From: a virus
Taxonomy: Duplodnaviria > Heunggongvirae > Uroviricota > Caudoviricetes
Virus record (IMG/VR): IMGVR_UViG_2909314774_000001
DNA: 64,000 bases
Reading direction: 5' to 3' (one strand)
This document shows, piece after piece, positions 2,167-56,897 of this stretch (the first letter of the stretch is position 1; each line of letters opens with the position of its first letter). The position numbers and the translations under genes were made by a program. The notes under the pieces are model-generated. The model searched no databases and was not told where the DNA came from. It was given only the letters and a program-made list of their open reading frames with translations.

Positions 2167-2556
2167 ATGGGCTTCCCTTCTCCTGCGGCGGATTATGCTG
2201 AGAGCCGTATTTCTCTTGATCAGCAGATAATTAGACATCCTTCAGCGACCTACTTCATGAGGGCAGCTGATAGTCATCATCGTGAGGGAATATTACAGGG
2301 TGCATTGCTGGTGGTCGATTCCTCACTTACCCCGGTTGATGGTTCTCTGCTTGTATGCGCTCTGGATGGGGAATATCGCGTAAAAAGATACCGGAAGTAT
2401 CCACGTCAGCATCTGGAGGATTTAAGAACCGGTAAGAAGGAAGCATTGCCAAAGGATGACGATGGATGCACGGGCAGCAATGCCGTGTTTGGTGTGATCA
2501 CTCACATTATCAACGACGCAAGAAGTGGCGAGTTTGATGATTGTCCCGTGATGTAG
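2167..2556 (+). CDS. UmuD-like S24 peptidase (UmuD'-length; begins at the GFPSPAADY segment that follows the UmuD self-cleavage site)
   Basis: translation aligns by eye to E. coli UmuD (GFPSPAADY..RI.L.Q..I.HPSATYF; conserved DS and VK(K/R) catalytic positions; VFGV(V/I)(I/T)H(V/I) near C-terminus); no umuC partner downstream. Confidence 0.75.
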   Translation: MGFPSPAADYAESRISLDQQIIRHPSATYFMRAADSHHREGILQGALLVVDSSLTPVDGSLLVCALDGEYRVKRYRKYPRQHLEDLRTGKKEALPKDDDGCTGSNAVFGVITHIINDARSGEFDDCPVM

Positions 2557-2567
2557 GAGAACTGATT

Positions 2568-2593
2568 AGGCGGTGCAATGCACCGCCTTTTTA
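2568..2593 (+). terminator. intrinsic terminator (GGCGGTGCA / TGCACCGCC + TTTTT)
   Basis: GC-rich palindrome followed by T-run immediately after umuD-like stop. Confidence 0.65.
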
Positions 2594-3694
2594 TCACACT
2601 GCGCGGAATGCGATTTCGCCAGGTATTACTTCACCTTGCCAATACATTTGGGCAGCAACGCGATCTGCGAGGTCACGATAAATAGCCGTAAATTCGCTAT
2701 CTGGACGACTAATAACGGTTGGTGTTCCGTTATCCAGATCTTCACGAAGAGAGATATGAAGTGGCATTTGGCCTAACAACTGCGTGTTGTATTTCTCGGC
2801 CAGTTTCTGTGCGCCACCGGTGCCAAAAATTGGCTCGTGATGACCGCAGTTACTGCAAATATGCACACTCATGTTTTCGACGATACCCAGTACCGGCACT
2901 TCGACTTTTTCGAACATCACAATGCCTTTCTTCGCATCGATCAGCGCGATGTCTTGCGGCGTAGTTACCACAACCGCACCAGTTACAGGAATGTTCTGCG
3001 CCAGCGTCAACTGAATATCACCAGTGCCCGGCGGCATATCGAGAACGAGATAGTCCAGATCAGGCCATAGAGTTTCCTGCAACATCTGCATCAGCGCCTT
3101 GCTGGCCATCGGTCCACGCCACACCATTGCATTGTCGTCGGTGACCAGATAACCAATAGAGTTGGTTGCCAGGCCATGAGACATGATAGGTGCCATGTGA
3201 GTACCGTCAGGTGAGGTTGGACGTTGGTTTTCCGCGCCCAGCATGGTTGGAATTGATGGACCATAGATATCGGCATCCAAAATACCAACTTTCGCACCTT
3301 CAGCAGCCAACGCCAGTGCCAGGTTCACCGCCGTGGAGGATTTACCCACGCCGCCCTTGCCTGAGCTGACGGCGATAATGTTCTTAACGCCATTAATGCC
3401 TGGTTGGTTTTTGACGCGCTTAAGCGTGGCAATGTTGTACGACAGCTTCCAGTCAATAGCCTTTGCGCCAGTGATACGGAGCAGATCACCACTACATTGC
3501 TCTTTCAGGTCTTCAAAAGGCTTATTCCACACGAAAGGCATGATTAGTTCGACATGCAGTGTGTCATCCATCAACGCAACATGGTGTAACGCTTTAAGCG
3601 TAGTCAGGTTGTGTTTCAGGGTTGGGTGCTGAAAATTAGCCAGCGTACCGGCTACCATTGCTCTCAGGGCATCCGGCGATTTGGACTCGCTCAT
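2594..3694 (-). CDS. apbC: iron-sulfur cluster carrier ATPase ApbC/Mrp
   Basis: 366-aa translation near-identical to E. coli Mrp (SSGKGGVGKSS P-loop, CxxC motif); divergent from metG as in E. coli. Confidence 0.95.
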   Translation of the reverse strand: MSESKSPDALRAMVAGTLANFQHPTLKHNLTTLKALHHVALMDDTLHVELIMPFVWNKPFEDLKEQCSGDLLRITGAKAIDWKLSYNIATLKRVKNQPGINGVKNIIAVSSGKGGVGKSSTAVNLALALAAEGAKVGILDADIYGPSIPTMLGAENQRPTSPDGTHMAPIMSHGLATNSIGYLVTDDNAMVWRGPMASKALMQMLQETLWPDLDYLVLDMPPGTGDIQLTLAQNIPVTGAVVVTTPQDIALIDAKKGIVMFEKVEVPVLGIVENMSVHICSNCGHHEPIFGTGGAQKLAEKYNTQLLGQMPLHISLREDLDNGTPTVISRPDSEFTAIYRDLADRVAAQMYWQGEVIPGEIAFRAV

Positions 3695-3851
3695 CCCGTC
3701 TCCTTTATTTTAATTTGCGCAATTGTCGCCTTGTAGTGTACTCCAGCTACGACATTTAATCATTTATGAGAAATGCTGTTATCACATGGCAGACATAAGG
3801 CCATTTTGTTACTATCAAGCCCCTTTTCACTACAAAGAAGTAATGCCTACT

Positions 3852-5885
3852 ATGACCCAAGTCGCGAAGAAAATTCTGGTGACGTGCGCGCTGCCGTACG
3901 CTAACGGCTCAATCCACCTCGGCCATATGCTGGAGCACATCCAGGCTGATGTCTGGGTTCGTTACCAGCGAATGCGCGGCCACGAGGTTAATTTCATCTG
4001 TGCCGACGATGCCCACGGTACGCCGATCATGCTGAAAGCACAGCAGCTTGGTATCACACCGGAGCAGATGATTGGCGAAATGAGTCAGGAACACCAGACT
4101 GATTTCGCAGGCTTTAACATCAGCTATGACAACTATCACTCGACGCACAGCGAAGAGAACCGTCAGTTGTCTGAGCTTATCTATACTCGCCTGAAAGAGA
4201 ACGGTTTTATTAAAAACCGCACTATCTCTCAGTTGTACGACCCGGAAAAAGGCATGTTCCTGCCGGATCGTTTTGTAAAAGGCACCTGCCCGAAATGTAA
4301 AGCGCCAGATCAATACGGCGATAACTGTGAAGTCTGCGGCGCGACCTACAGCCCGACTGAACTGATTGAGCCGAAATCGGTAGTTTCTGGCGCTACGCCG
4401 GTAATGCGTGATTCTGAACACTTCTTCTTTGATCTGCCCTCTTTCAGCGAAATGTTGCAGGCATGGACCCGCAGCGGCGCGTTGCAGGAGCAGGTGGCGA
4501 ACAAAATGCAGGAATGGTTTGAATCCGGCCTGCAACAGTGGGATATCTCCCGCGATGCGCCTTACTTCGGTTTTGAAATTCCGAACGCGCCGGGCAAATA
4601 TTTCTACGTCTGGCTGGACGCGCCGATTGGCTACATGGGTTCCTTCAAGAATCTGTGCGACAAACGCGGCGATACCACCAGCTTCGATGAATACTGGAAG
4701 AAAGACTCCACCGCCGAGCTGTACCACTTCATCGGTAAAGATATTGTTTACTTCCACAGCCTGTTCTGGCCTGCCATGCTGGAAGGCAGCAACTTCCGCA
4801 AGCCGACCAACTTGTTTGTTCACGGCTATGTGACGGTGAACGGCGCGAAGATGTCCAAGTCTCGCGGCACCTTTATTAAAGCCAGCACCTGGCTGAATCA
4901 TTTTGACGCCGACAGCCTGCGTTACTACTACACTGCGAAACTCTCTTCGCGCATTGATGATATCGATCTCAACCTGGAGGATTTCGTTCAGCGCGTGAAT
5001 GCCGATATCGTGAACAAAGTGGTTAACCTGGCCTCCCGTAATGCAGGCTTTATCAACAAGCGTTTTGACGGCGTGCTGGCAAGCGAACTGGCTGACCCGC
5101 AACTGTACAAAACCTTTACTGATGCCGCTGAAGTGATTGGCGAAGCATGGGAAAGCCGCGAATTTGGTAAAGCTATCCGTGAAATCATGGCATTGGCTGA
5201 CCTGGCTAACCGCTATGTCGATGAACAGGCTCCGTGGGTGGTGGCGAAGCAGGAAGGACGCGATGCCGATCTGCAGGCGATTTGCTCTATGGGCATTAAC
5301 CTGTTCCGCGTGCTGATGACGTACCTGAAGCCGGTACTGCCGAAACTGACTGAACGTGCAGAAGCATTCCTGAATACAGAACTGACCTGGGATGGTATCC
5401 AGCAACCGCTGCTGGGCCATAAAGTGAATCCGTTCAAGGCACTGTATAACCGTATCGATATGAAGCAGGTTGAAGCACTGGTGGAAGCATCTAAAGAAGA
5501 AGTGAAAGCAGCTGCCACGCCAGTAACTGGCCCGCTGGCAGATGATCCGATTCAGGAAACCATCACCTTTGATGACTTCGCCAAAGTTGACCTGCGCGTG
5601 GCGCTGATTGAAAACGCAGAGTTTGTAGAAGGTTCTGACAAACTGCTTCGCCTGACGCTGGATCTCGGTGGTGAAAAGCGTAATGTCTTCTCAGGCATCC
5701 GTTCCGCTTATCCAGATCCACAGGCACTGATTGGTCGTCACACCATTATGGTGGCTAACCTGGCACCACGTAAAATGCGCTTCGGTATCTCTGAAGGCAT
5801 GGTGATGGCTGCTGGCCCTGGCGGGAAAGATATCTTCCTGTTAAGCCCGGATGTCGGTGCTAAACCTGGCCACCAGGTTAAGTAA
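3852..5885 (+). CDS. metG: methionyl-tRNA synthetase
   Basis: translation from [26 protein letters not shown] matches E. coli MetG almost residue for residue (HIGH and KMSKS motifs); the ORF-track start at 3723 is an upstream in-frame extension. Confidence 0.97.
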
Positions 5886-5934: not shown

Positions 5935-6046
5935 ATAGACACAACCCCTTCTGACTTTAACAAACCCTAAAACAATTTGTTTTCTACCTTTTGTTGATTG
6001 AGATAATAAGCCACATAAGAAAACAAATTGTTTCGGAGTGGTTGAA

Positions 6047-6477: not shown

Positions 6478-7707
6478 ATGATAATTGAACAAATAACCCC
6501 TTGCTCGGAGCTTGGAATGACTGATACCGCTTTTTCAAAATCGTTACAAAAAGAAGTCGATCCTGAGCAGTACTTGGCGCTAAAGAATTTAGATGACAGC
6601 TCGGTTCATGCTATTGCCCGTGACGATATCATCTGCCCCATTTGCAAAGTTGGAGGTGGTTCGTTCGTTAGAGCCACTAGGAATGGTGGCTATCACAAGA
6701 AGGCGCATTTCAGATTTACCGGTGAAGATGGTCAAGGCCATCATCCATCATGTGATTTCTATGGAGATAGATTAACATCTGAGGTGAAGCAGCACCTTGT
6801 CTCATTCACAAAAGATCGAACAAAGTATTCGCAGGTAATACGAAAGCTGGTCTGTGCCGGCATACAGGAAGGGATATTTACTCAAGAAAAAATGTGGCAG
6901 ATGAGGGAATGGTTCTTCAATAAGCGAAAGGATTCCACATTTGAAATATGGTTAGAAAGCGAGCATTTAGACTGGCTTTATTATATTAGTGGGTTACGTG
7001 ATGCATATCTAGCATGGACAACTCCTGATATTCTACCTTTCGCGCCCATTCAGGTTACTGTCCCTGGTTTTTCTTGGAGGCGTGCGATTGACAAAGAGGT
7101 GCTAAGAGTTCACATCAAGACTCTCCAGCAATTGCGTGAAATTTCAGTCTCACATAGTGACATTGCTGTAATCTTAGAACACATAAACAATAATCGTGAC
7201 CGCACAATTCTCGATCCATCGCATTTGGAGGACGAGATAAGTAAGACCTATAAGCTTACTAGTTTTGTGATGGGCAATTACATTGAGTTTCAGACAAAAA
7301 CGGTTAGCGACAGAGCATACGGGGAAGCTAAGTTTCTGGCATTTGCAGCACTTTTGTTGTTCGTGTCAGATTGGGACCTCAACATTGCTATTGGTAAGTT
7401 TTCTAAGATTGCCAGAGTGAAGGAGGTTGATGACATGCTGGCTGGTAATTTCATTGGTCTTAATCCTTACTTCCGATACGACCTGGCTAATGCAGTGAAG
7501 AGATTGCAGGATAACTGGCCGATTGAATACCAAGAGTTGGAGCATTGGAATGTTGAGAAATCCATGCGTGACGCATATGAAAAGTGGCGTGCGACAGAGC
7601 CTGAATTCGCTCCACCCCTATTGCCAGACTTGTATATTGCCAAACATGAGAAAGAAGTCGCACAAGACGAGCAAGTCAGGCAGTGGATTAAGAACGGGGA
7701 TGTTTGA
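6478..7707 (+). CDS. hypothetical protein with N-terminal Cys/His cluster (CPIC ... HH..C), function unknown
   Basis: 409-aa ORF; no recognisable catalytic motif. Confidence 0.55.
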   Translation: MIIEQITPCSELGMTDTAFSKSLQKEVDPEQYLALKNLDDSSVHAIARDDIICPICKVGGGSFVRATRNGGYHKKAHFRFTGEDGQGHHPSCDFYGDRLTSEVKQHLVSFTKDRTKYSQVIRKLVCAGIQEGIFTQEKMWQMREWFFNKRKDSTFEIWLESEHLDWLYYISGLRDAYLAWTTPDILPFAPIQVTVPGFSWRRAIDKEVLRVHIKTLQQLREISVSHSDIAVILEHINNNRDRTILDPSHLEDEISKTYKLTSFVMGNYIEFQTKTVSDRAYGEAKFLAFAALLLFVSDWDLNIAIGKFSKIARVKEVDDMLAGNFIGLNPYFRYDLANAVKRLQDNWPIEYQELEHWNVEKSMRDAYEKWRATEPEFAPPLLPDLYIAKHEKEVAQDEQVRQWIKNGDV

Positions 7708-8148
7708 GTGTAATTAGCTTAATCAATCAGTTGATAATGGCGGTCACAATTTGATTCTTTTCTATAAGAACCCGTTGATCGCCACTACTCCCATCCCATA
7801 CCAGCAATCACATCATTAAATATCAATAGGTTAACGTTGTTTATACCAATAAGAAAACAACTAAATAACAGATCAACGAAACATCAACGCTTTCTCCCGA
7901 TTTGGTCTAAAAAATTGACGTTATCACACATCACTTCTTATACCCGTAATTCTACGCAGCAGATAGCGCCACAGCGTCCAAATTTCACCACAAACGACTC
8001 AACACACTACCAACAAAAACACACGCTCAAAATCGCTCCCGTTGCGTTACACAACCATATAAACAACTTATTTTCAGGCATAACAAAACAACTAAATAAC
8101 ACATATGACATTCCCCAAAACAACCAACCTCTTTATGGCAGGCTACCG

Positions 8149-8215
8149 AAAAGACCCACCTCTTCTCCCCAGGCTACCGGACAACCAACCTAACTTTCAC
8201 AGGCAATCCGAAAAC
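8149..8215 (+). repeat. three imperfect direct repeats CAGGCTACCG-N-CCAACCT inside a G-depleted tract
   Basis: repeat units starting near 8149, 8171, 8201; the same family recurs at 12135-12210. Confidence 0.5.
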
Positions 8216-8701
8216 ATTCATACGCGCGATACCCACGACACGCCATTCCCCAAACAGCGAAGAAACACCAGAATCACTGAAACCCCAACGAAGCCTGTTA
8301 CCGCAAGGTTTCTCTCAATCCCAAAAGACACGAAACATAACAATCACGGGAAACGCCATTACCCAATACACGAATAACTACAAAAGCCCTTCACGCACTC
8401 CAGACAAACAACTCAAACACAATAACGAAAGCAATCGCCCACCTGCCATTACTCCATACACGGAGAAGAACAATCACCAAAACGACGAGAACACCCCATA
8501 GAAGAACCACCGCAAAACGAACGAAACCATTTACACCGACAGAGAGAACAACACACCCAATTCACCAACAGAAATAGTCGCCGCATAGAACGTTCTGGAA
8601 GGAGTGAGCATTAACGCCTATAGAGAGGTTGAGACAGATAAAACACGAAGAAAACACAACATGTATAGCGAACAAGCCAGGTATGTATAAGTGGGGAGGG
8701 A

Positions 8702-8726
8702 AGGAGGTGTGTCGCCTCCTTTTTCG
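8702..8726 (+). terminator. intrinsic terminator (AGGAGG tgtgtcg CCTCCT + TTTTT)
   Basis: stem-loop with T-run at the 3' edge of the G-depleted tract. Confidence 0.6.
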
Positions 8727-8810
8727 TATTTATTCAACTCCTGATTTTATCCCCCGTAACACCCCTACGGTCAGCCTTCGGTCCATACAGGGAAAAGGCT
8801 GCATCCCGCT

Positions 8811-8930
8811 ACAGAAACGGCTGGGTTGCCTTCGGGGAACGGCTGGAGGTTTTCAGGGAAACGGTCGAGTTGCCTGTGTGGATTTCGGGAAACGGCTCGA
8901 TGCCGGTTCAGGAACGGTGGCGTACCGGTA
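8811..8930 (+). repeat. five direct repeats with core G(G/A)AACGG(C/T) at roughly 21-32 bp spacing (iteron-like)
   Basis: cagaaacggctgggttgcc / ggggaacggctggagg / cagggaaacggtcgagttgcc / cgggaaacggctcgatgcc / caggaacggtggcg. Confidence 0.6.
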
Positions 8931-9300
8931 TAGCGAGAGGGAGAGTTGCGGCTACCCACCTGTAATGTGCGGGAAGAAGAGAGGCGCTCACGTGCAGGCG
9001 GACTAACTTACCGTTGGACTCCCTCTGAATGCCCAACTACAGCGTAATTGTGCCAGAGAGTCAGCGGGTCACAATCGATTTCAGTAGGTTTTCGGGGAGA
9101 AGAAAATTCTGCCCACCAGCCCTGCGGCGCGCGTAGGGCAGAATATCGTAAATACTGGTTCCGTGTCGTTCCCGGATACTCACTACCCAGCCTGGCTTTC
9201 CCGACATAAAATCCTTTTCCGCCTTTGTCTTATTGCGATAATAACACCAACAAGTAAACAACATGTTTAGACGTTATATAAACGAAGTGAGGATGAAGAG

Positions 9301-9519
9301 ATGATTAAGATGCCTGTGACGGTTGAGGTGTGGGGCGTGGATTCCCTGGCTGAGTGTCTGGATGCAGTGGGGCCGGAGTTGTACCGCAAGTTGTGGTCGT
9401 TCGTCCCGGCAGAAGGGGAATCGCCCAAAGGGAAGGATATCTGGCACCTGCTGAGTGAAGATGAAAAGCGGGAGCTGGTGTACGCGGTACACAGCGAGTT
9501 CCCGGGCGACGAAGATTAA
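9301..9519 (+). CDS. small acidic early protein (72 aa)
   Basis: class-A palindrome at 9254-9270, RBS GAGGA, hairpin 9526-9547 downstream. Confidence 0.5.
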   Translation: MIKMPVTVEVWGVDSLAECLDAVGPELYRKLWSFVPAEGESPKGKDIWHLLSEDEKRELVYAVHSEFPGDED

Positions 9520-9525
9520 GAGTGA

Positions 9526-9547
9526 GGCCACCAGCACGGTGGCTTTT
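9526..9547 (+). terminator. hairpin GGCCACC agcac GGTGGC + TTTT (member of a repeated GGCCACCA..TGGTGGCC hairpin family)
   Basis: stem-loop followed by T-run; related copies at 11621-11640 and 12094-12116. Confidence 0.55.
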
Positions 9548-9657
9548 GTCGCTATTAACCTCCGGGCAGCGCAGCACCGTAACGATATACTTTGTGGCCG
9601 TTTTCTTACTGGTATTGTTTACGCAATTCAGAAAACAACATGTTTAAGGATTGCGTT

Positions 9658-9987
9658 ATGTTTGCAAATATCGACATCAACCAAATCAAGAAAATGACTC
9701 AAAAAGAGTTTGACCAGTTTTATGAGTTAGAAGGTTGGTCTTCCACGCTGATCAATTCGCGCTGGGTGCTTGAGCTGATGACTCGTGATGACGCACCTGC
9801 TTTGATGATTTGCGACATGGGTGAAGATGCTGACTTTATGGATATGAGCGAATTTTGTGTGGACACATACAACCGCAGCCAGAAGTACTACTTCACATGC
9901 GATAGCGAAAATGACGTGATTTCTAAGGTCTATCTTCACCTCGTCCAGCATTGGGACGTTCAGGAGTTTCTTGAAGTATTCGAGTAA
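9658..9987 (+). CDS. small highly acidic early protein (about 109 aa)
   Basis: class-A palindrome 9629-9647 upstream; many more Asp/Glu than Lys/Arg; hairpin AAGCCAGCATTGCTGGCTT downstream. Confidence 0.5.
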   Translation: MFANIDINQIKKMTQKEFDQFYELEGWSSTLINSRWVLELMTRDDAPALMICDMGEDADFMDMSEFCVDTYNRSQKYYFTCDSENDVISKVYLHLVQHWDVQEFLEVFE

Positions 9988-10141
9988 CCCCAACCAAAGC
10001 CAGCATTGCTGGCTTAACTTAATCTGTAGCCGCAGGGAAGAACCTGCATATCGCTCATGCGCCTGATCAATATGCTTTGTAGCCGCTTTCTTACTGGTAT
10101 TATTTACGCCATTGAGAAAACAAGTTGTTTACGGAGTTGTG

Positions 10142-10453
10142 ATGAAAAAATCATTGGTTCTTGGTCTGGACAAAGACCAGAAGAGAAAAGAGAAGCCTGC
10201 GCTGGTTGCTCAATTAACTTTGCTGGACATCGTTGCCAATGGAACCTCTATTCGTCTGTTCCGTGAAACAGCGGTGTCTTTCGATAAAAACACCTTTACT
10301 CGTTATGTAATGAATGTTCGTCGCCAGCGTGGAAAAGGCTGGGTAGCATTTCAAAGAATGTGGCCGGAACATCAGCTCGAACTGGCTTTGATGGAAGTTA
10401 ACCGCGTGGCCCAGCAAGAAATTCAGAGAGCATCAGTGATGGCAATAGCCTGA
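10142..10453 (+). CDS. small basic early protein (about 103 aa)
   Basis: class-A palindrome 10113-10130, RBS GGAG, terminator 10489-10516. Confidence 0.5.
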   Translation: MKKSLVLGLDKDQKRKEKPALVAQLTLLDIVANGTSIRLFRETAVSFDKNTFTRYVMNVRRQRGKGWVAFQRMWPEHQLELALMEVNRVAQQEIQRASVMAIA

Positions 10454-10488
10454 TAATGTGCAAGTGGTAATTAGTCGACAGTACGACA

Positions 10489-10516
10489 GCCCCGCCATCC
10501 TTACGGGGCTTTTTTG
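10489..10516 (+). terminator. intrinsic terminator (GCCCCG ... CGGGGC + TTTTTT)
   Basis: GC stem with strong T-run. Confidence 0.7.
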
Positions 10517-10579
10517 TATTGTAAGTACATACTTACGATCATAGAATATAAAAATAACCAATACACTACGGAGAGTGAA

Positions 10580-10975
10580 ATGACCGTTAAACGCGAAAAA
10601 CTGACAGTTGATGTTTACTATGCCTCTGAAACCGCCGAAGGTAAGAATGTGGCAAAAATCACCGTTGTTACGTACAACACCGAAACTGGTGCCGAAGTCC
10701 AGGCCAGTACGATCGTGCGTAAAGGTGATGCCTCCGGCGGCGAGTACGCGACTCAATACCAGTCTATTTTCGATGCAACTGACCCGCTGCTGCTGAAAAT
10801 CGAGAACTACTTCCGCCAGGTTGATGAAGAGGTGTTTGAAACCATGATGAATATGGTTAACACCGTATTCGCCTCCAACCTGAATACCAACACTACCTGG
10901 ATTGGTCAGTACGGCCTGCGCATTACCTCCGGCATTCCTGCTGACACCTTAATCCCTGAAAGCGTATTCGCTTAA
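10580..10975 (+). CDS. hypothetical early protein (about 131 aa)
   Basis: RBS GGAGAG before ATG at 10580; class-B palindrome GTAAGTACATACTTAC at 10521-10536 upstream; terminator 10996-11020. Confidence 0.5.
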   Translation: MTVKREKLTVDVYYASETAEGKNVAKITVVTYNTETGAEVQASTIVRKGDASGGEYATQYQSIFDATDPLLLKIENYFRQVDEEVFETMMNMVNTVFASNLNTNTTWIGQYGLRITSGIPADTLIPESVFA

Positions 10976-10995
10976 TCCTCTTTAAATGGCGCGTA

Positions 10996-11020
10996 AACCG
11001 CGCCATTTTCTTATGCCCGA
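10996..11020 (+). terminator. intrinsic terminator (ATGGCGCG taaac CGCGCCAT + TTTC)
   Basis: perfect 8-bp GC stem. Confidence 0.65.
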
Positions 11021-11092
11021 TAACAATTTGTTTTCTGCCTTATCTGATTTGTGAAAATGATTTCACTGAAGCAACTTAATAAGGAAACCATC

Positions 11093-11467
11093 ATGGGACT
11101 TGATATCTATATCGAGACACAGCCTAAAAACGATCTGAATAACGAGGCATCCAGAAAGCGGGTTGCTTACTTCCGTAAGTTCAATGCGCTCGTTGGGTGG
11201 ATGGAGCGCAACGTAGGTGAAGTCGAAAATTGTGAACTTTTAGAATTAACGATGAATGACATTTGTTTTCTGAAGGCTCATTTGATGCACATAAACGAAA
11301 GTAATTGCGAAGAGTACTTGCCTACCCGGGAAGGTTTTTTCTTCGGCAGTCAGGAGTACGATGAAGGTTACTGGCATGATGTGGGGGAGTTGAAAGAGCT
11401 TGTGGAAGATCTGATTAAGAACCACGACTTTCACAATAACAGACTGACCTTCTGCGCCTGGTGGTAA
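11093..11467 (+). CDS. small acidic early protein (about 124 aa)
   Basis: class-A-like palindrome 11023-11037; RBS AAGGAAA; ORF-track start 11051 also possible. Confidence 0.45.
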   Translation: MGLDIYIETQPKNDLNNEASRKRVAYFRKFNALVGWMERNVGEVENCELLELTMNDICFLKAHLMHINESNCEEYLPTREGFFFGSQEYDEGYWHDVGELKELVEDLIKNHDFHNNRLTFCAWW

Positions 11468-11796
11468 ATATGGGCGATTTCAAGAAACGCCTGAAGGAAA
11501 GAGTCGAGATGGTCAGAAAGCAAAACGCCTCTTCTGTCATCAGATACGCAAGGCAGTTTAGTCGCAACAACAAATCAGTTGAGGAAAAGATCCTTAGCGT
11601 AATCGGGCGATAATTATTAAGGCCACCAGCATTGGTGGTCTTAAATGACTTTTAATAACCGAAGGTTAGTTTGAAACCTGGCTATCAACTTCCAGAACCT
11701 TTCTTGTGTATTCAGCCTGTATTAACTTCTTTTATGCCTTATCTACACTGCGATAATTACATCAACAAGAAAACAACATGTTTACGCAGTGAGGAT

Positions 11797-12084
11797 ATGC
11801 TCATGACTGATTTCACCATTACCCCTAAAGCACAAAATGTATTTCTTGAATCATGGCTGGACTTGCCGGAAACAGAACAGCAAGAAATGGATCATGTGGA
11901 ATATGACGAGCAGGTAAGCACGCGATTCTTCCACTTTGAGGGCTGCGTTTACGACATTGCCGACTTCATGCGAGATGACCGCTTCCCTGAATGGCACGCA
12001 AGCTATCCACTAAACGCCTTCGCCATGCTGATGATCCGTGTGGATGATTCAGGGGATACCATCGACATCGGTCTGCTCCACTAA
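11797..12084 (+). CDS. small acidic early protein (about 95 aa)
   Basis: class-A palindrome 11767-11783; RBS GTGAGGA; conserved hairpin AGGCCACCAatgcTGGTGGCCT at 12094-12116 downstream. Confidence 0.45.
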   Translation: MLMTDFTITPKAQNVFLESWLDLPETEQQEMDHVEYDEQVSTRFFHFEGCVYDIADFMRDDRFPEWHASYPLNAFAMLMIRVDDSGDTIDIGLLH

Positions 12085-12134
12085 AGAGTAAGGCCACCAA
12101 TGCTGGTGGCCTTAAATGACCATCCTGTTTCCCG

Positions 12135-12210
12135 CAGGCTAAAACACCAACCTCTTACCTCCAGGCAACCGACAAACCCACCTGTTCCCGTCCGGCTACC
12201 GCAACTTTCC
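12135..12210 (+). repeat. second cluster of CAGGCTA/CCGGCTACCG-type direct repeats in a C-rich, G-poor segment
   Basis: gcaggctaaaacaccaacct / ccaggcaaccgacaaacccacct / ccggctaccgcaactttcc. Confidence 0.45.
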
Positions 12211-12287
12211 ACTTTGACGCCTTATTCGTACAACGATAATTAACACCAACAAGAAAACAATTTGTTATTTACGATAAGGAATTAATC

Positions 12288-12770
12288 ATGAATTTTATCG
12301 CTACTGTAAACGCACCCGCACATGGCAATATCGCTGTAACGTTCTCTGACATTGAAAAACGAGTACTTGGTGCATGGCGCGACAATGAGACGGTAGAACT
12401 GTCAGCACAAGAAAAATGCATTATTGCACGCGACATCATTGGCAATCGTCGTTACTCGCGGGTATTTGAGAAAGCGTATGTGGTAAATTCTGGATTCGGA
12501 ACGTTCGTCTTTCCGGTGCGCTCCGGGCGATTCTGCCAGTCCAAGCTGATTGAGTTCGCTACGCAGATTTCTGTCTGGATTAAAACTCAATCGTCGTTCA
12601 AATTTTCCGACGATGAAGCAGTATCGCAGGGGATGCGGATCGCCAACAATGCGATTAAATGCAAAAACATTACGTATACCGCTGGCGTTGACACATGGAA
12701 ACTGTTTTGCGCTAACTTTATGCTGAATGTATACGCAAGCAACCGCATCCACATCCTTGATGGCGTGTAA
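12288..12770 (+). CDS. hypothetical protein (160 aa) flanked by both direct-repeat families
   Basis: class-A palindrome 12254-12268; RBS AAGGAA; followed by hairpin AGGGCC agaaac GGCCCT. Confidence 0.55.
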   Translation: MNFIATVNAPAHGNIAVTFSDIEKRVLGAWRDNETVELSAQEKCIIARDIIGNRRYSRVFEKAYVVNSGFGTFVFPVRSGRFCQSKLIEFATQISVWIKTQSSFKFSDDEAVSQGMRIANNAIKCKNITYTAGVDTWKLFCANFMLNVYASNRIHILDGV

Positions 12771-12780
12771 CTGAGAAGAG

Positions 12781-12905
12781 GGCCAGAAACGGCCCTTTCT
12801 CTATAGCCACCAGCTGCCGCAGGGAAATTTTCAGAAACGGCGAGGAACGCATTCATGAGCCGACGGGAAACGGCCAGGATTTTTTCGGGAAACGGCTGCA
12901 TTCGC
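12781..12905 (+). repeat. second cluster of GAAACGGC direct repeats (four copies)
   Basis: ggccagaaacggccc / cagaaacggcgagg / cgggaaacggccagg / cgggaaacggctgc. Confidence 0.55.
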
Positions 12906-13386
12906 CTTTATATAGAAAAAACATCGGGAAGCTGGTGGAATCCAACCAGCGGTTGTCGGACAGGTGAGCGGGGAAAATTATGATGACTTTCGTCGCCTGA
13001 GACATCCAGATTTCTTTCGTAGCGTAATCACATATGTGATTAAGTGGTGTGATTATGTGAAAAATCACGCGCACATAATACGCGAGCGGATACGGAACAA
13101 AACAAAATGCCGATCCGCGCCGACAATTAAACGCGGATCACATAGCAAGAATAAAAGCCAATGATTAACCATACACCATAACGCAATATAACGCGATTTA
13201 AGCGCGTTAATGCGCTAAGTAATGGGTATGTACTGGTAAGGATATAAAAGCGCGTCTATGGCGTTATTTTGGCGCTTATTTTTATGTTGTTGGAGTGAGT
13301 CAAAGACAATAAAAAAAGCGCCATCATTGGCGCGTTATGGTGGAAGTATTGGAAACGAAAAAAGCGCCCATAGTGGGCGCTCGATT

Positions 13387-13617
13387 TTATTTATGTAAAC
13401 TGATTTCAAATCCCATTTCTACAAACGCTTTTAACATTAAAAATATATCAGCGTCATTCACGTCTGCTTTTTTTCGCTCCTGGTCGCTCAATAAGTCAAT
13501 TTTGCGCGTCGTTTCATCTATAAGCTCGACTGCGCGCCCAGCGTAACCAGCGATCCCAGCGATGCGATTAACAAAATATTCATTGCGCACGTTAACGCCA
13601 GCGATAAGAATAAACAT
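13387..13617 (-). CDS. hypothetical small protein (76 aa)
   Basis: ORF bracketed by two copies of hairpin GCGCCCATAGTGGGCGC (13363-13380 and 13634-13650). Confidence 0.4.
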   Translation of the reverse strand: MFILIAGVNVRNEYFVNRIAGIAGYAGRAVELIDETTRKIDLLSDQERKKADVNDADIFLMLKAFVEMGFEISLHK

Positions 13618-14909: not shown

Positions 14910-15434
14910 TCAAAAAGGCAAAATTCGTTCAACCCAATCGAACAAAACAACTATTTTTCTACCGTTCTCGACACGTAGTGTAACCTGACAAGCATCTGCG
15001 CCTGCTGACACCCCCTCAATTTCACGGCCATCCGCCATGTACACCCTTATAGATTTGTTTGCTTTGTAGGCTTGGTTGCAAATTGCAAAAAAATCGCGGC
15101 GTGATGGCCGATTATCGACATAATCAGGGTGAACTGTTAGTCGACCTTTGAAATCGTGAGCGATACTGTCAACCACACCTGATTCAATTGTACTAATGCG
15201 TTCAAGTGGGAGCCTTATACGATTTTCTTTGTCAAAAGGGGCTGGGCAAAGGTCAACTTTGTTACGAGATGGCATGAGGCCATAAACGTACATGCAAAAC
15301 GCCTGGCCATCTTCGAGAGTGACCCTTACAGGAATTTGTTCTCTGCGCCAGAACATCAGTAGTTTTTCAACGTTAGTGTAATCTCGCGGCCAGAGTTCAG
15401 CTTGGATACCGTAGGTAATATCTTTGGTTGTCAT
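14910..15434 (-). CDS. hypothetical protein (about 175 aa from the internal Met MTTKDITYG)
   Basis: ORF-track frame; start chosen to abut the upstream lipoprotein gene. Confidence 0.45.
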   Translation of the reverse strand: MTTKDITYGIQAELWPRDYTNVEKLLMFWRREQIPVRVTLEDGQAFCMYVYGLMPSRNKVDLCPAPFDKENRIRLPLERISTIESGVVDSIAHDFKGRLTVHPDYVDNRPSRRDFFAICNQAYKANKSIRVYMADGREIEGVSAGADACQVTLRVENGRKIVVLFDWVERILPF

Positions 15435-15438
15435 GTCA

Positions 15439-15861
15439 TCACAGAGTTGTTGGCAGAATGTCGATGTCACCAGAATTGCTGGTGAACACCCTGAATGCTT
15501 TTGTGTCTCCATTCTTCAGAGTCGTTTCTCGCTCTTGACGAGCGGGGTTTAGAGCACATAAACCTGCACCTTCAAGAGATGCACCCACAATTAATTCTCC
15601 GGCATTTAAATGGAAAGTCGCTTTTTCGCCTGTAGCCAGTTTTGCGACAGTTTCGCCGTTGATGAAAATGGAAGCATCACATCCAGCTCCTACAAAACCT
15701 GTGTCTCTCATTACCACCAACGTAGCTGGCGCTGCGCTTTGATACTTGAACACTTTGGCCTGCGGTGCTGGTTTGGCGTCATGGATTGATATTGGGCGTG
15801 ATTGGCACGCGGCAAGCATCAACACTGGTAACGTTAGTAGAGGGAGAAGCGAGTATTTCAT
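15439..15861 (-). CDS. putative lipoprotein (lipobox LMLAAC after a signal peptide)
   Basis: MKYSLLPLLTLPVLMLAACQS: leader plus Cys lipobox. Confidence 0.6.
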   Translation of the reverse strand: MKYSLLPLLTLPVLMLAACQSRPISIHDAKPAPQAKVFKYQSAAPATLVVMRDTGFVGAGCDASIFINGETVAKLATGEKATFHLNAGELIVGASLEGAGLCALNPARQERETTLKNGDTKAFRVFTSNSGDIDILPTTL

Positions 15862-17770: not shown

Positions 17771-17852
17771 AAACCTCTTTCCTTAGTGCCTTTTGTATGT
17801 TATTTGGCTATTATAATAAGTAAGTGATTACTTAGTGGATTGTAGCAATAAA

Positions 17853-18533
17853 ATGGATGTAAAAATCACGATTTTGCAGGTTGATGTTGCCAACCTTCGC
17901 CCGAATACCTGGAACACCAATTCGGTTGGTGCGCAGAATTTTGAAAAACTGAAAGGTTCTATCGAAAAATTGGGCTTTTTTAAGCCAATTTTGGCTCGTG
18001 AACTTGAAGATGGATTTTTTGAAATCCTCGGCGGCGAACATCGCTGGCGTGCTGCTATTGAGCAAGGAATTTCAACGGTTCCGGTGCTTTCTGTGGGCAA
18101 AATTAGCGATGTCGTAGCTAAACAGATGTCACTGGTGGACAACGAGCGATACGGTGAAGACGACCAAATCGCATTGCAACGCTTCATTGAAGAAATTCAG
18201 TCAGAACTTGACTATCAACTGTCTGAAATCGCCCCGTATGACGACGAAATCTCGATGGTTTTAGCAAAAGAGGCGGCAATCGACCTTGAAGCACTGGAGG
18301 CGTTGTCTCGTGGTAGTGATGAGCCTGTCGATACCGACAAACGAGAGAAAACCGAACGTGTGGGGGCGGAACATCAGACCATGCGCTTCAAAGTAACTTT
18401 CGATGCGTCAGATCGTGTTGCAGAAACCATAAAAAACATCATCAAAGAGCAGGCTATTAACACCGGTAATGAAATGGAGAACGCTGGTGAGGCTCTGGTG
18501 TGGCTGGTCGACTACTACAAGGAGCGTATGTAA
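17853..18533 (+). CDS. ParB/Srx-fold (ParB N-terminal-like) protein 1
   Basis: GGEHRWRAA motif resembling the ParB GERRWRA box; start at MDVKITIL preferred over the track start. Confidence 0.6.
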   Translation: MDVKITILQVDVANLRPNTWNTNSVGAQNFEKLKGSIEKLGFFKPILARELEDGFFEILGGEHRWRAAIEQGISTVPVLSVGKISDVVAKQMSLVDNERYGEDDQIALQRFIEEIQSELDYQLSEIAPYDDEISMVLAKEAAIDLEALEALSRGSDEPVDTDKREKTERVGAEHQTMRFKVTFDASDRVAETIKNIIKEQAINTGNEMENAGEALVWLVDYYKERM

Positions 18534-19201
18534 TGACCAAAAAGTTTGAAATCGTATATCGCGACCCGGCAGATCTTATTCCCTATGAGATGAATGCCAA
18601 AAAGCATGATGAACAGCAGATCCGAGATCTGGCCGCAGCCATTAAAAAGCGCGGATTTGACCAGCCAATTACGGTCGATAAGAACGACGTAATTATTACT
18701 GGCCACGGCCGCCGTGAGGCTGCAATTTTTGCTGGACTTGAGCGCGTGCCGGTTATTGTTCGCGATGATCTGAGTGATGACGAGGTACGTGCAAAGCGCC
18801 TTGAAGATAACCGACTTGCCAGCATTGATTACGATGCAATTAAGCTACAGAAAGAGCTTGAGTCGCTTGTTCTGGACGATATCGAGGTTTTCGGCTTCGA
18901 AGAGCGTGAGTTGAACGTTCTCGTTGGCAGTATGACAGAAGAAATGGACACCGACTCGCTAGTTATCGATCTTGGCGAAGAAACTAAACGACAGAAGGAT
19001 GAACACACCGAGATCAGTCGTGAAGTTGCAGCGGAAGAAGTACGTGTTGTCGACGTATTGGGCTTTAAAACGCTCCCTGCTGGCTCTGCCATTGTTGTTG
19101 GTGATTTGCTTGCCCATATGGAAGAAATGACGGGAGAAAGCGGGGTAGACGCATTTGTGGCATATGCGGAGAAGATCTCTTCCGGGGAGATGGCTGCATG
19201 A
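18533..19201 (+). CDS. ParB/Srx-fold (ParB N-terminal-like) protein 2
   Basis: ITGHGRREAA motif; start overlaps the previous stop (TAATG). Confidence 0.6.
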   Translation: MTKKFEIVYRDPADLIPYEMNAKKHDEQQIRDLAAAIKKRGFDQPITVDKNDVIITGHGRREAAIFAGLERVPVIVRDDLSDDEVRAKRLEDNRLASIDYDAIKLQKELESLVLDDIEVFGFEERELNVLVGSMTEEMDTDSLVIDLGEETKRQKDEHTEISREVAAEEVRVVDVLGFKTLPAGSAIVVGDLLAHMEEMTGESGVDAFVAYAEKISSGEMAA

Positions 19202-19863
19202 GCAAATACATCATCAACGTATCGTTTCAGACACGCGTAAATAAAACCACGCGCACGTTGGAAATCGCTGAGTCGTTCGGGCTTGGCCTGGACGAAAAAG
19301 AGTGGACGCTTTACGACAATCTGGAGCTGGAAGTGAAGCAGGGCGATGTGGTGTACATCACCGGCCAATCCGGTTCCGGCAAATCCGTTGTGCTGCGCGA
19401 GTTGCAACGACAGATGAAGGATGAAGGGCTGTCTGTAGCCTCCATCGATGATTTTACCTTCGATAATGAGGTTAACGTCATCGATCAGTTGGGCAAAACG
19501 ACCAGTGATGCGCTTGGGTTGTTATCTATGGCTGGTCTGAACGATGCATATCTGTTTGTTCGCAAGCCTTCTGAAATGTCAGACGGCCAGAAATATCGTC
19601 TCAAGATTGCCAAACTGATTGAGTCAGGCGCTAAAGTATGGGCTGCTGACGAGTTCGGCGCTGTTCTCGACCGTGTAACCGCTCAGGTTGTGGCGTCTAA
19701 CCTCCAGCGTGCCGCTCGAAAGGTTGGTGCGACGGTAATGGTGGCGACGACTCACGAAGACCTGAAGAACGCGCTGCGCCCTGATATGCAGATCACCAAG
19801 CACTACAAAGAACGCGTGAAGGTGGAATATCACAATGGTAGTCATGATGAGGTCCATTCATGA
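19198..19863 (+). CDS. soluble ABC-type ATPase
   Basis: Walker A GQSGSGKS, signature-like MSDGQ, Walker B VWAADEF, H-loop TTHE; translationally coupled to neighbours. Confidence 0.65.
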   Translation: MSKYIINVSFQTRVNKTTRTLEIAESFGLGLDEKEWTLYDNLELEVKQGDVVYITGQSGSGKSVVLRELQRQMKDEGLSVASIDDFTFDNEVNVIDQLGKTTSDALGLLSMAGLNDAYLFVRKPSEMSDGQKYRLKIAKLIESGAKVWAADEFGAVLDRVTAQVVASNLQRAARKVGATVMVATTHEDLKNALRPDMQITKHYKERVKVEYHNGSHDEVHS

Positions 19864-20759: not shown

Positions 20760-21026
20760 ATGACGTTAACCGATAAACAAAAGGACATCATCAAAACGCT
20801 CAATCTCGGTTATGAGCGAGGTCATCTACTTGACCTGGACGAATTGCTTGAAGTTTTGCCGTACAAGACAACCAAGCAAAGTATCCAGTTCTCAATTCGC
20901 GCTCTGATAAAAAAGGGGCTGGTGGAGAAAGGGCATACGCGCCAACGCAGTGACAATCGCTATCACCGCCGAACTCTTGGGTTAACCACTTTAGGTCGAG
21001 CCAAAGCGAAGTTACTGGTGATGTAA
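20760..21026 (+). CDS. small basic protein, possible winged-helix DNA-binding
   Basis: 88-aa ORF, Lys/Arg-rich C-terminus. Confidence 0.4.
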   Translation: MTLTDKQKDIIKTLNLGYERGHLLDLDELLEVLPYKTTKQSIQFSIRALIKKGLVEKGHTRQRSDNRYHRRTLGLTTLGRAKAKLLVM

Positions 21027-21048: not shown

Positions 21049-21106
21049 GACCTGCTTCTGTATATATAAATAATAAGTAACTTATTAAATATATACAGAA
21101 GCAGGC
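21049..21106. repeat. large near-perfect palindrome (CCTGCTTCTGTATATAT ... ATATATACAGAAGCAGG) with AATAAGTAACTTATT core
   Basis: 17-bp arms are exact reverse complements; a diverged second copy lies at 55941-56000. Confidence 0.8.
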
Positions 21107-21222
21107 TTAATAAGACATGCCCAGACCTAATTAAACACCCCAGAAAACAAGTTGGTTAGCAGATTCAGTAAACAAGTTGTTTTAGAGCGCATGGACGCGC
21201 TCTGTGTGTTTTAGAGGGATCT

Positions 21223-42545: not shown

Positions 42546-42739
42546 CCAACACCATTCATGGCCATATCAATGATTTTCTGGTGTGTACCGGGTTGAGAAG
42601 CGGTGTAAGTGAACTGCAGTTGCCATGTTTTACGGCAGTGAGAGCAGAGATAGCGCTGATGTCCGGCAGTACTTTTACCGTTACGCACCACGCCTTCAGT
42701 AGCTGAGCAGGAGGGACAACTGATGGAGATGGAAGCCAC
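42464..42739 (-). CDS. insA: IS1 InsA
   Basis: [40 protein letters not shown] matches IS1 InsA. Confidence 0.95.
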
Positions 42740-42794
42740 GGGAGCACCTCAAAAACACCATCATACACTAAATCAGTAAGTTGGCACCATTACC

Positions 42795-52828: not shown

Positions 52829-53146
52829 GTATTCCTCCTGATGGCCGTGATGTAGGAAGGCCATCAATCTCCTCTGTTCAAACTGAGTTTTCGACTCAAA
52901 AATTACTTTAAAAGGCTATAGCCCATTACGTGTGCATTATCAAATTGTGTACGGCATATCACCGTACTTGTAATATAGAGGTCATTGTTACTTTTTTCAA
53001 CAGACAAATACAAGCTATGATTGCCAATTGTTAATCACAACCTACCATTTAACCTTTACACCGCAGCCGTAGGCATTTAGGCTATATCACATATAAGAAA
53101 ACAAGTTGTTTCAGACGATAATTATATACGCAAAGGGAACTCTCCA

Positions 53147-53815
53147 ATGACCAAGATCTTTGTGGTTGGCGGCACAAAGGGCGGGCCTGGCAAATCCACC
53201 GTTGCCCAGCAAATTGCCGTTTGCCTGAAAGTCAAAAAGAAGAAGAAGGTTTATATTACCGATATAGATATTCAGCGCACGACAACGAGCTGGTGTGAAG
53301 ACCGTCGACAGAACGAAGACCTTGAGCTGATTCCTTTTGCATACGTTCAGGATGACATCATTAAGCACCTAAAATCGCTTCAGGGTAGAGCTGAGTTTGT
53401 AGTGGTAGATGCCGGTGGCTTTGACTCCGAAATTCAGCGACAAGCGATGCTGATGGCTGACGTTATCATTATCCCGCTTCGTCCTAAGCGTCGTGATTTG
53501 AAATCTCTGCGTGACATTGATCCTATTATCGACAATGTTCGTAATGTAAACGATAAAGTGAAGGTCCGCGCGGTCATGAACCAGTGCCCGGCTTTGCCAT
53601 CACAAGTGTCTCGCATTCTGGCGGCTAAAGAGATTGTCGAGACGTTTGGCATCGAGTCTGCGCCAGTCAATCTATATAACCGCAACGTCTATGATGATGC
53701 GGAAGAGTCTGGTCGTTCTATCTTTGAAATGACCGGTAGCGAGCGCGACAAAAAGGCGGAAGCCGAGTTTGAAGAATTTGTAGATTATCTGTTGAGTCTG
53801 GAGGAAGAAGAATAA
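53147..53815 (+). CDS. ParA-type partition ATPase (small type Ib, ParF-like)
   Basis: deviant Walker A GGTKGGPGKST; 222 aa; class-A palindrome 53096-53112 upstream. Confidence 0.8.
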   Translation: MTKIFVVGGTKGGPGKSTVAQQIAVCLKVKKKKKVYITDIDIQRTTTSWCEDRRQNEDLELIPFAYVQDDIIKHLKSLQGRAEFVVVDAGGFDSEIQRQAMLMADVIIIPLRPKRRDLKSLRDIDPIIDNVRNVNDKVKVRAVMNQCPALPSQVSRILAAKEIVETFGIESAPVNLYNRNVYDDAEESGRSIFEMTGSERDKKAEAEFEEFVDYLLSLEEEE

Positions 53816-54174
53816 TGTCCATGAAAATGGGTGACCTAGCAAAGCGCAAAGAGCCTGATGCACCGGCTAAGAACACAACTCCTTTGCGCCAACCAGTCAG
53901 ACCACAGGGACGCCCGACTCGTGGCAAAGAGAAAATTAAAAGCCGCACAATGTCACTGGAGGACGAATACTTCGAACTGCTGGAGATGATGAAGTTCATC
54001 CCTCGCTTCGAGAAATTCACCCGCTCTGATGTGATTCGTGCTGCTATTTTCCATCTTGCGGAGAAGACACCGCAGGAAATCGAGGACATCGTGAAACTTA
54101 ACGAGGCGATCACAGCTGCCGATGTCACGATGCGTACCGATGAAATTAAACGCGAGTTGATGAAGAAAGGGTGA
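53815..54174 (+). CDS. ParG-like small DNA-binding partner (putative RHH)
   Basis: 119-aa ORF translationally coupled to parA-like gene; basic N-terminal tail. Confidence 0.5.
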   Translation: MSMKMGDLAKRKEPDAPAKNTTPLRQPVRPQGRPTRGKEKIKSRTMSLEDEYFELLEMMKFIPRFEKFTRSDVIRAAIFHLAEKTPQEIEDIVKLNEAITAADVTMRTDEIKRELMKKG

Positions 54175-56854: not shown

Positions 56855-56897
56855 CTAATACTAGAAAACAATTTGTTTAAAAAACAAAGGAAAGCAC

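Follow-up and report, generated by a model that had tools for sequence, protein, structure and literature searches.

A putative palindromic operator dispersed over an SSU5-like phage-plasmid and the small-gene cassettes of its accessory region

The C1 immunity regulon of phage P1 comprises more than 17 operators, each an asymmetric 17-mer, dispersed over the genome at ban, ref, dam, kilA-repL and other loci. KorB, which acts at OB sites in the IncP plasmid RK2, and omega of pSM19035 are global partition-protein regulators of plasmids. Conjugative plasmids harbor establishment regulons of the leading-region or conserved upstream (CUP) type, exemplified by the IncN CUP repeats found with ardA/ardB, and the concept of an anti-defense leading region reportedly stems from a 2024 paper. 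In T4-type phages, promoter-early stem-loop (PeSL) cassettes consist of small, mostly ORFan genes, each with a sigma-70-type promoter on one side and a stem-loop or terminator on the other, and the repeated promoter/stem-loop motifs are the breakpoints of indels between close relatives (PMC2839356; PMC4122927). Here we analyze a 64,000-nt stretch of DNA (the window) from the IMG/VR virus record IMGVR_UViG_2909314774_000001 and focus on an array of small genes at positions 9250-12800, which is the variable (hyperplastic) accessory-gene region of an SSU5-like phage-plasmid. The reading that we favor, and consider reasonably probable, is that this region is built from operator-controlled small-gene cassettes which belong to a dispersed-operator regulon and are separated by recombination joints.

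Judged by its gene content, the window is an SSU5/pHCM2-like phage-plasmid of Escherichia coli with a complete SSU5-type gene set; annotation around the array gives terminase, portal, capsid and tail genes, ParA, a DnaB-like helicase, primase and ligase, together with methionyl-tRNA synthetase (MetRS), a UmuD-like peptidase and a FljA-family gene. The 3.5-kb array region is present at full length and 99% identity in ~110-kb E. coli plasmids typed as “non-mobilizable, IncFIB,” and 668 PLSDB plasmids from Klebsiella, Escherichia, Enterobacter, Salmonella, Citrobacter and Cronobacter match the array. Escherichia phage Cyrano is 98.5% identical over the same region, with Salmonella phage SSU5 and Klebsiella phage-plasmids more distant. 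Cyrano is an inducible phage-plasmid maintained at ~5.5 copies per cell, and ciprofloxacin increases its virion output 39-fold (PMC9928086). Genes resembling cra and tciA/B of P1 are likewise found in SSU5-like elements. SSU5/pHCM2-like phage-plasmids are frequent in clinical E. coli, Klebsiella, Salmonella and Enterobacter; the literature that we searched holds no description of their regulation, and a full-text literature search with the operator sequence defined below returned unrelated papers only.

Eight genes, here termed g1 to g7 and g5b, make up seven transcription units in the array, with g5 and g5b in one unit (Table 1). Six of these seven units carry a 13-bp palindrome with the core AAACAA-N-TTGTTT, and g4 has none. 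The preliminary description of this DNA had placed a palindrome 10-45 nt upstream of each gene, and five of the seven units fall within that range: the distance from palindrome to ATG is 11-32 nt for g1, g2, g3, g6 and g7, and 59 nt for g5, where the palindrome is inverted and lies over the −35 region. The spacing is fixed relative to the −10 element. In g1, g2, g3, g6 and g7, 13-14 nt separate the −10 element from the palindrome, which is then centered near +13, and in g5 the inverted palindrome lies 19 nt upstream of the −10 element and is centered near −38. An extended −10 element (TGnGATAAT or TGGTATTnT) is found in five of the six operator-bearing units and in the promoter of the gene at 6047; that of g5 reads TGTGAAAAT, with TG at 11050-11051 followed by GAAAAT and a geometry identical to that of the gene 6047 promoter, and g7 is without the TG (CGATAAT). 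The distance from palindrome to Shine-Dalgarno sequence varies from 0 to 25 nt, and folded as RNA the palindrome is no more stable than shuffled sequences (0 to −1.8 kcal/mol, z about 0). Given this fixed −10 geometry, the variable Shine-Dalgarno distance and the lack of RNA structure, the palindrome is best read as a putative DNA operator for a dimeric repressor.

The preliminary description gave the upstream motif for the array genes, but the palindrome is not confined to these; it is found genome-wide, including at housekeeping and late promoters. The window contains 27 strand-matches (~13 sites) versus 2.5 strand-matches expected, and 0 of 100 shuffles reached 27. When the window and the rest of Cyrano are taken together, each element has about 20 such promoters, all on the main coding strand; outside of the window, palindromes in Cyrano precede nrdB, a tciA-like gene, CYRAN_87, CYRAN_93, a cobT-like gene and CYRAN_58. 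Comparison of orthologous promoters from SSU5, four Klebsiella phage-plasmids, Cyrano and PhiR41_1 reveals no variation in the −10 element or in either palindrome arm, with flanks that diverge at an overall DNA identity of 72-76%, and the central N is the sole base within the palindrome that varies across relatives. In a seven-genome alignment of the g3 module, the −10 element and both arms are invariant and the whole stretch from −10 to palindrome is nearly so. A Klebsiella ozaenae lineage, in which the g1, g3, g4 and g7 proteins are just 31-52% identical, yet harbors 17 sites (≤1 mismatch) in 50 kb, with both positional types present. Over-represented, fixed in position relative to promoters and conserved beyond its flanks, the palindrome has the properties of an operator, and one deeply conserved operator at ~20 promoters offers a direct experimental handle on the plasmid/phage lifestyle switch.

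Each unit is followed by a GC hairpin, as originally claimed: all seven are real, with folding energies of −12.4 to −19.2 kcal/mol and z scores of −2.9 to −5.2 versus shuffled sequences. Clear T tracts, as in intrinsic terminators, are present at the hairpins of g1, g3, g4 and g7 and absent from those of g2, g5b and g6. The sequence GGCCACCA..TGGTGGCC, previously assigned to three hairpins, is found at 12092 (perfect) and at 11621 (one mismatch); the hairpin at 9526 shares the left arm only and has a shorter, 6-bp stem (GCCACC/GGTGGC).

These repeated sequences are also where relatives differ. Cyrano lacks g1, and its g2 promoter is a hybrid, the left part of which is identical to the g1 module of the window and the right part to the g2 module, such that the crossover of this deletion lies inside the operator palindrome. 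Phage PhiR41_1 lacks g6. The GGCCACCA hairpin occurs on both sides of this gene as a direct repeat, and the deletion junction falls within the hairpin sequence. In SSU5 and the Klebsiella relatives, the same conserved g1 module precedes an operon of two genes, of which g1 is the second. Core genes of the group are g1, g3, g4, g6 and g7, variable ones are g2, g5 and g5b, and some relatives contain further small genes as insertions; the g2 family is confined to E. coli SSU5-like elements, and the g6 and g7 families to SSU5-like elements including those of Yersinia pestis. One Klebsiella element harbors g5 at 87% identity, with adjoining genes at 37-82%, which suggests transfer of the cassette. 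Cassettes would thus appear to be gained and lost via recombination within the operator or the hairpin, as in the PeSL cassettes of T4, and a cassette structure of this kind explains the turnover of accessory genes in these elements.

We examined expression in the carried state using the RNA-seq data for E. coli LF82, a Cyrano lysogen (PMC9928086, S1 Table), in which the background median is 9.8 fragments per kilobase per million (FPKM) and the authors' cutoff for a “moron” is 49. The values for g2 (12.8), g3 (12.2), g4 (17.0), g5 (5.7), g6 (6.7) and g7 (25.5) show that the array is almost silent despite good −10 elements, g5b excepted, which at 57.9 FPKM is the sole array gene clearly expressed. 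Structural genes range from 5 to 24 FPKM, parA is at 50 and the protein encoded after parA is at 89. This low expression agrees, indirectly, with repression of the array, as it would if the genes are kept off in the carried state. The architecture of insulated, individually promoted small genes, typical of early or establishment regions of phages and plasmids, is as the preliminary description had it. By eye, most Cyrano genes rise in macrophages relative to lysogeny broth (LB), and this comparison does not discriminate members of the regulon. As a separate observation, the difference between g5b and g5, the gene directly upstream, implies that there is an internal promoter or that a 3′ fragment differs in stability.

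In the scheme that we propose, a cassette would comprise an extended −10 sigma-70-type promoter, a 13-bp operator at +13 or −38, one small open reading frame (ORF) and a terminator or hairpin, with g5/g5b (two ORFs) and g4 (its own promoter and no operator) as the exceptions. The regulon would extend over ~20 promoters, including those of the terminase operon, parA, the replicative helicase, nrdB, the cobT-like gene and tciA-like genes. While the element is carried as a plasmid, a dimeric repressor encoded by the phage-plasmid would occupy the operators and keep the cassettes almost silent; when this repressor is absent or titrated, upon entry into a naive cell or upon induction, the cassettes would fire. 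The candidate for this role is a ParG/omega-like ribbon-helix-helix (RHH) protein encoded after parA. The repeated operator and hairpin sequences would double as recombination joints, allowing deletion, insertion and exchange of cassettes between relatives.

Table 1. Positions in the 64,000-nt window of the array genes, their promoter-operator modules and hairpins, other palindrome-bearing loci and the candidate palindrome-binding protein. pI, isoelectric point.
Feature	Position	Strand	Description
g1	9301..9519	+	72 aa, pI 4.5, phrog_6757
g2	9658..9987	+	109 aa, pI 4.2, phrog_7645; variable cassette
g3	10142..10453	+	103 aa, pI 10.5, phrog_5125; core gene of group
g4	10580..10975	+	131 aa, pI 4.5, phrog_2473; core, fast-evolving, 31-55% identity in relatives
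g5	11093..11467	+	124 aa, pI 4.8, phrog_7971; variable cassette
g5b	11470..11613	+	47 aa, pI 11; start 3 nt past g5 stop; missed in earlier list
g6	11803..12084	+	93 aa, pI about 4.1, phrog_1845
g7	12288..12770	+	160 aa, pI 9.2, phrog_1641; core gene of group
g1 module	9234..9268	+	Extended −10 TGCGATAAT (9234-9242), 13 nt, palindrome AAACAACATGTTT (9256-9268)
g2 module	9610..9645	+	Extended −10 TGGTATTGT (9610-9618), palindrome 9633-9645
g3 module	10095..10130	+	Extended −10 TGGTATTAT (10095-10103), perfect palindrome AAACAAGTTGTTT (10118-10130)
g4 promoter, sigma-70-like	10519..10547	+	TTGTAA-17-TAGAAT, without palindrome
g5 module	11021..11058	+	Inverted palindrome 11021-11033 at about −38, 19 nt, GAAAAT (11053-11058)
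g6 module	11749..11783	+	TGCGATAAT (11749-11757), palindrome 11771-11783
g7 module	12235..12267	+	GATAAT (12235-12240), palindrome AAACAATTTGTTA (12255-12267)
g1 terminator hairpin	9526..9547	+	GCCACC-AGCAC-GGTGGC then TTTT; −17.3 kcal/mol, z −3.2
g2 hairpin	9997..10015	+	Without T tract; −12.4 kcal/mol
g3 intrinsic terminator	10488..10515	+	GCCCCG...CGGGGC then T6; −17.2 kcal/mol
g4 terminator	10984..11012	+	g5 operator ~10 nt downstream (composite terminator-operator-promoter)
g5b hairpin, GGCCACCA type	11617..11644	+	Left copy of direct repeat flanking g6 cassette
g6 hairpin, GGCCACCA type	12089..12114	+	Right copy of direct repeat flanking g6 cassette
g7 terminator hairpin	12773..12803	+	−17.7 kcal/mol
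Gene 6047 (DUF5983) promoter	5970..6033	+	Palindromes at about −38 (5970-5982) and about +13 (6021-6033), 51 bp apart
Palindrome at A+C-rich non-coding stretch	8061..8073		−38 type
Terminase/structural operon	21145..21212	+	Two palindromes (21145, 21170), then terminator-like hairpin
parA	53099..53111	+	Palindrome between promoter and parA start
DnaB-like helicase gene	56866..56878	+	Palindrome ahead of gene
Candidate binder, RHH-like protein	53815..54174	+	119 aa, gene directly after small ParA

The RHH-like protein is the best candidate for the repressor. It has a predicted basic N-terminal arm and a β-strand/helix/helix pattern, matches the archaeal RHH family aCcr1 weakly (E 2e-4, below the cutoff), is expressed in the lysogen and carries an operator in its own (parA) promoter. 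In a lineage that keeps the operator, the putative DNA-contacting arm and β-strand are near-identical at 48% overall identity. The small ParA that precedes it (222 aa) matches MipZ, AAA_31 and CbiA, and the one distant RHH homologue examined on a plasmid that is not a phage-plasmid is cut by insertion sequence elements. Three other proteins were considered as binders and set aside. g5b is excluded, being absent from the SSU5 and Klebsiella elements that retain the operator. The cI-like CYRAN_45 is unlikely, as its own control region has GGTAAG/CTTACC repeats and no palindrome; these repeats occupy the divergent region between CYRAN_45 and CYRAN_46 (Cyrano 42574-42829) and are probably master-switch operators distinct from the AAACAA palindrome. 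The FljA-like protein encoded at 14910-15512 on the minus strand was rejected on the finding that the E. coli fliC promoter and 5′ untranslated region (UTR) are devoid of AAACAA-N-TTGTTT. Independent of this question, the gene is a full-length member of the FljA family (“repressor of phase-1 flagellin,” PF03614, E 2.5e-84), the C terminus of which gives a weak Hfq-like signal; its transcript is at 18 FPKM in LB and about eightfold higher in cell-culture/macrophage samples, and the phage-plasmid might silence host flagellin via this protein.

Several points count against a repressed, insulated cassette array of this kind. The parA gene has the operator yet is expressed in lysogeny, and repression therefore cannot be all-or-none. 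Several hairpins lack T tracts, and insulation of the units may therefore be leaky. Promoters were called from sequence alone, and a generic promoter scan flagged none of the operator-bearing ones because these have no −35. Other regulators can be named: g3 is also a candidate, and an 88-aa winged helix-turn-helix (wHTH)-like protein encoded at 20760-21026, 78% conserved across lineages and adjoining the sites of the late operon, is an alternative to the RHH-like protein, although it is more likely a lytic regulator, silent in lysogeny at 7.8 FPKM. Finally, an activator could in principle use the −38-type sites.

The alternative that survives best is that the array is an anti-defense island, which would serve mainly to supply DNA mimics or other proteins that inhibit restriction, BREX or CRISPR as infection begins, a reading that we regard as unlikely. 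All seven ORFs listed in the preliminary description, which saw seven monocistronic genes, are present at their given positions, and each has a full-length PHROG match (E 1e-44 to 1e-97) to a family of “unknown function”; the array ORFs are annotated as coding sequences by PGAP and in Cyrano, g6 probably starts at 11803 (93 aa) and not at 11797, and with the eighth gene, g5b, the g5/g5b unit becomes bicistronic. The products were described as mostly acidic, which is correct for five of the eight (pI 4.1-4.8, net charge −7 to −15), whereas the other three are strongly basic (pI 9.2-11); because about 21% of the proteins in the window are already below pI 5 by a crude gene call, the acid bias of the array is real but modest. 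Ocr and ArdA are much more acidic than any of these. None of the eight products has a significant Pfam or NCBIfam match, which bears out the statement that none is recognizable by motif: in Pfam, no family is at or near its curated cutoff (below E = 0.1 there are only four unrelated sub-threshold matches, from g4 and g5b), in NCBIfam there is none at E up to 0.01, the ArdB/KlcA antirestriction Pfam domain is not found, and a PDB sequence search gave no significant match. The suggestion that several products may be DNA-mimic anti-restriction proteins of the Ocr or ArdA type is not supported: by sequence and by hidden Markov model, none resembles Ocr, ArdA, ArdB/KlcA or another family that is curated. 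A match of g2 to multicystatin (E 1e-4) is a repeat artifact, the sum of three insignificant repeat matches with E-values of 19-300 each. Because the operator is common to housekeeping and late genes, the regulatory signature is not specific to anti-defense either.

Structure prediction yielded a confident model for g5 only, and no Ocr-like or ArdA-like fold was obtained; the AlphaFold2 model of g6, built from 17 close homologues, was too poor (mean predicted local distance difference test score 60.7) and was kept out of the fold search. The g5 model has a predicted YfbM/DMP12-like fold, the nearest folds being those of YfbM (DUF1877) and Neisseria DMP12, a DNA-mimic fold (PDB 1ryl, 3w1o; PMC3643605), although every E-value of the Foldseek search against the PDB exceeds 0.04. 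The g5 family is very large and uncharacterized, with more than 2,400 clusters at 50% identity, and its invariant motifs, MGLD, Y-x-R-K-x-N and GFFFG, are more suggestive of a binding pocket or an active site than of charge mimicry. Distant g5 homologues lie 0-1 genes from ardC (ArdcN + MPTase-PolyVal) in four of the six contigs long enough to judge, three of these four contexts containing an integrase, a TraI_2 relaxase or both, plus CbtA; one g5-homologue context contains DUF6094, SNF2, DUF1281 and DUF5983 genes, and one is without mobile-element marks. This adjacency to ardC is circumstantial and is the sole positive link of any array gene to anti-restriction. An anti-defense role is a hypothesis for part of the array, and the products are most plausibly establishment or host-interaction factors. 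A family that is large, unannotated, confidently foldable and repeatedly found beside ardC is a concrete and cheap candidate for anti-defense screening. Should none of these readings hold up, the region would be an ordinary variable block of phage ORFans.

The most far-reaching version of our proposal would be an undescribed global circuit in the style of KorB or omega, in which the RHH partner of ParA acts on ~20 palindromes and couples partition to repression of replication, late and accessory genes, entry into a naive cell triggers a burst of expression, and g5 is a new anti-restriction or anti-defense factor. Taken as a whole, this is distinctly unlikely.

The palindrome might instead be an activator site, such that a lytic regulator, for example the wHTH-like protein, turns on ~20 promoters that have no −35, making the array a set of middle or late lytic genes; we consider this quite improbable. 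The promoters do lack recognizable −35 hexamers, and a class II activator would bind close to where the −38-type sites are located. The late operon with its two palindromes directly follows the wHTH-like gene, whose product matches Sta1/Lrs14 wHTH models weakly and is conserved across lineages; the gene is silent in the lysogen, as would be expected of a lytic regulator. Most sites, however, are centered at about +13 within the transcribed region, where repressors normally act and activators do not, the extended −10 (TGn) makes a −35 element or an activator dispensable, and parA, which has a site, is expressed in lysogeny while the wHTH gene is off. Upstream of this gene and the terminase gene, at 17835-20750, genes that are all silent in lysogeny encode a tandem pair of ParB_N-domain proteins, an ATPase of the ABC type and a 296-aa protein that gives a faint GNAT signal.

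It is very improbable that the cassettes are lysogenic-conversion morons which the resident plasmid expresses to the advantage of its host. Like morons, the units are autonomous in having their own promoter and terminator, g5b exceeds the moron cutoff in LF82 and the g4 promoter is operator-free; against this, g2-g7 apart from g5b lie at 5.7-25.5 FPKM, versus a cutoff of 49 and a background of 9.8, so that the lysogen RNA-seq disfavors this reading for all but g5b, and the operator is shared with lytic functions. That the motif acts in RNA, as a 5′-UTR hairpin, a translational operator (RegA-like or FljA-like) or a processing site, is extremely improbable even with the motif located in the predicted 5′ UTR 11-32 nt before the start codon of most genes and the FljA-family gene ~2 kb away, as the motif is essentially unstructured, its spacing is fixed to the −10 element and not to the Shine-Dalgarno sequence, several copies lie inverted upstream of the −10 and hence outside of the mRNA, and the E. 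coli fliC 5′ UTR, the FljA target region, lacks it.

Other features of the window merit mention. Rfam detects three tRNAs and nothing else over the window, and Tandem Repeats Finder finds nothing relevant at 7600-13400. At 7760-8600, an ~850-nt non-coding stretch has a plus strand of 70-80% A+C with G at 8-16% and T down to 5%, a composition kept at the same position in Cyrano, SSU5 and one Klebsiella phage-plasmid as the sequence diverges. Its −38-type palindrome (8061-8073) is followed after 19 nt by TAAATA, and a terminator-like hairpin at 8698-8724 lies beyond the end of the stretch, which may be an ~600-nt C-rich, G-poor transcript that functions as a rut-like Rho-loading region or non-coding RNA. 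Two short direct-repeat families recur upstream of the array and near g7, one with ~30-nt units of the form ACCAACCTC...CAGGCTACCG at 8118-8213 and 12114-12205 and the other of the GGGAAACGG type at 8814-8917 and 12859-12907; such repeats could bind proteins as arrays or be left over from duplication. Upstream of the terminase operon, at 21052-21212, an inverted repeat with ~25-bp arms (CTGCTTCTGTATATAT...ATATACAGAAGCAG) precedes the two palindrome operators and the terminator-like hairpin, which reads GAGCGCATGGACGCGCTC then TGTGTGTTTT, a layout that suggests layered control of late genes, possibly antitermination. The genes at 2167-5885 include those for the full-length methionyl-tRNA synthetase, an ApbC/Mrp-like ATPase and a UmuD-like S24 peptidase, the last at 148 FPKM in the lysogen. 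After the parA/RHH pair, at 54226-55932, the window harbors a gene for a 568-aa KAP-family P-loop NTPase, in place of which Cyrano has a different, 267-aa gene (CYRAN_30); this position is another variable spot, and the gene is possibly of the defense type.

We return to the described systems. Like P1, this element is a phage-plasmid in which a single short operator recurs at many individual promoters, that of a DnaB-like helicase among them, but the P1 operator is asymmetric and of unrelated sequence. Because the control region of the cI-like CYRAN_45 has different repeats, the AAACAA palindrome is probably the operator of a second regulatory tier. The 13-bp, 6-1-6 geometry of the palindrome and its many copies recall KorB, as do those copies located just upstream of the −35 position (about −38, versus −39/−40 for class I OB sites), and the predicted joint control of partition, replication and accessory/establishment genes recalls both KorB and omega. 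A palindrome in the parA promoter, followed by a small ParA and an RHH-like partner, is further reminiscent of type Ib ParG/omega systems. Unlike KorB, the operator here is unrelated in sequence to OB, late structural genes belong to the regulon, and the two ParB_N proteins of the element are silent in lysogeny. Leading-region and CUP-type regulons likewise have repeated promoter elements before small genes, with expression on entry and subsequent repression as proposed here, and g5 relatives adjoin ardC in mobilizable islands; this element, however, is non-conjugative and without ssDNA-promoter (Frpo-like) structures, and the array contains no known Ard, Psi or Ssb genes.

The array shares with PeSL cassettes its small genes, each between a predicted promoter and a stem-loop or terminator, with all seven hairpins qualifying as stem-loops, and the location of junctions between relatives in repeated motifs, as seen for g1 of Cyrano and g6 of PhiR41_1. 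The g4 terminator and the g5 operator-promoter, ~10 nt apart, form a composite, and this is the only pair so tightly joined; elsewhere, promoter and stem-loop are mostly 50-130 nt apart and are not one compact motif. The host element also differs, being a temperate siphovirus phage-plasmid and not a virulent T4-type myovirus, and the array motif departs from the PeSL consensus, differing in sequence and including a palindromic operator whose occurrence extends to housekeeping and late promoters. On this comparison, the array resembles a PeSL-like hyperplastic region placed under dispersed-operator control of a P1-like or KorB-like kind.

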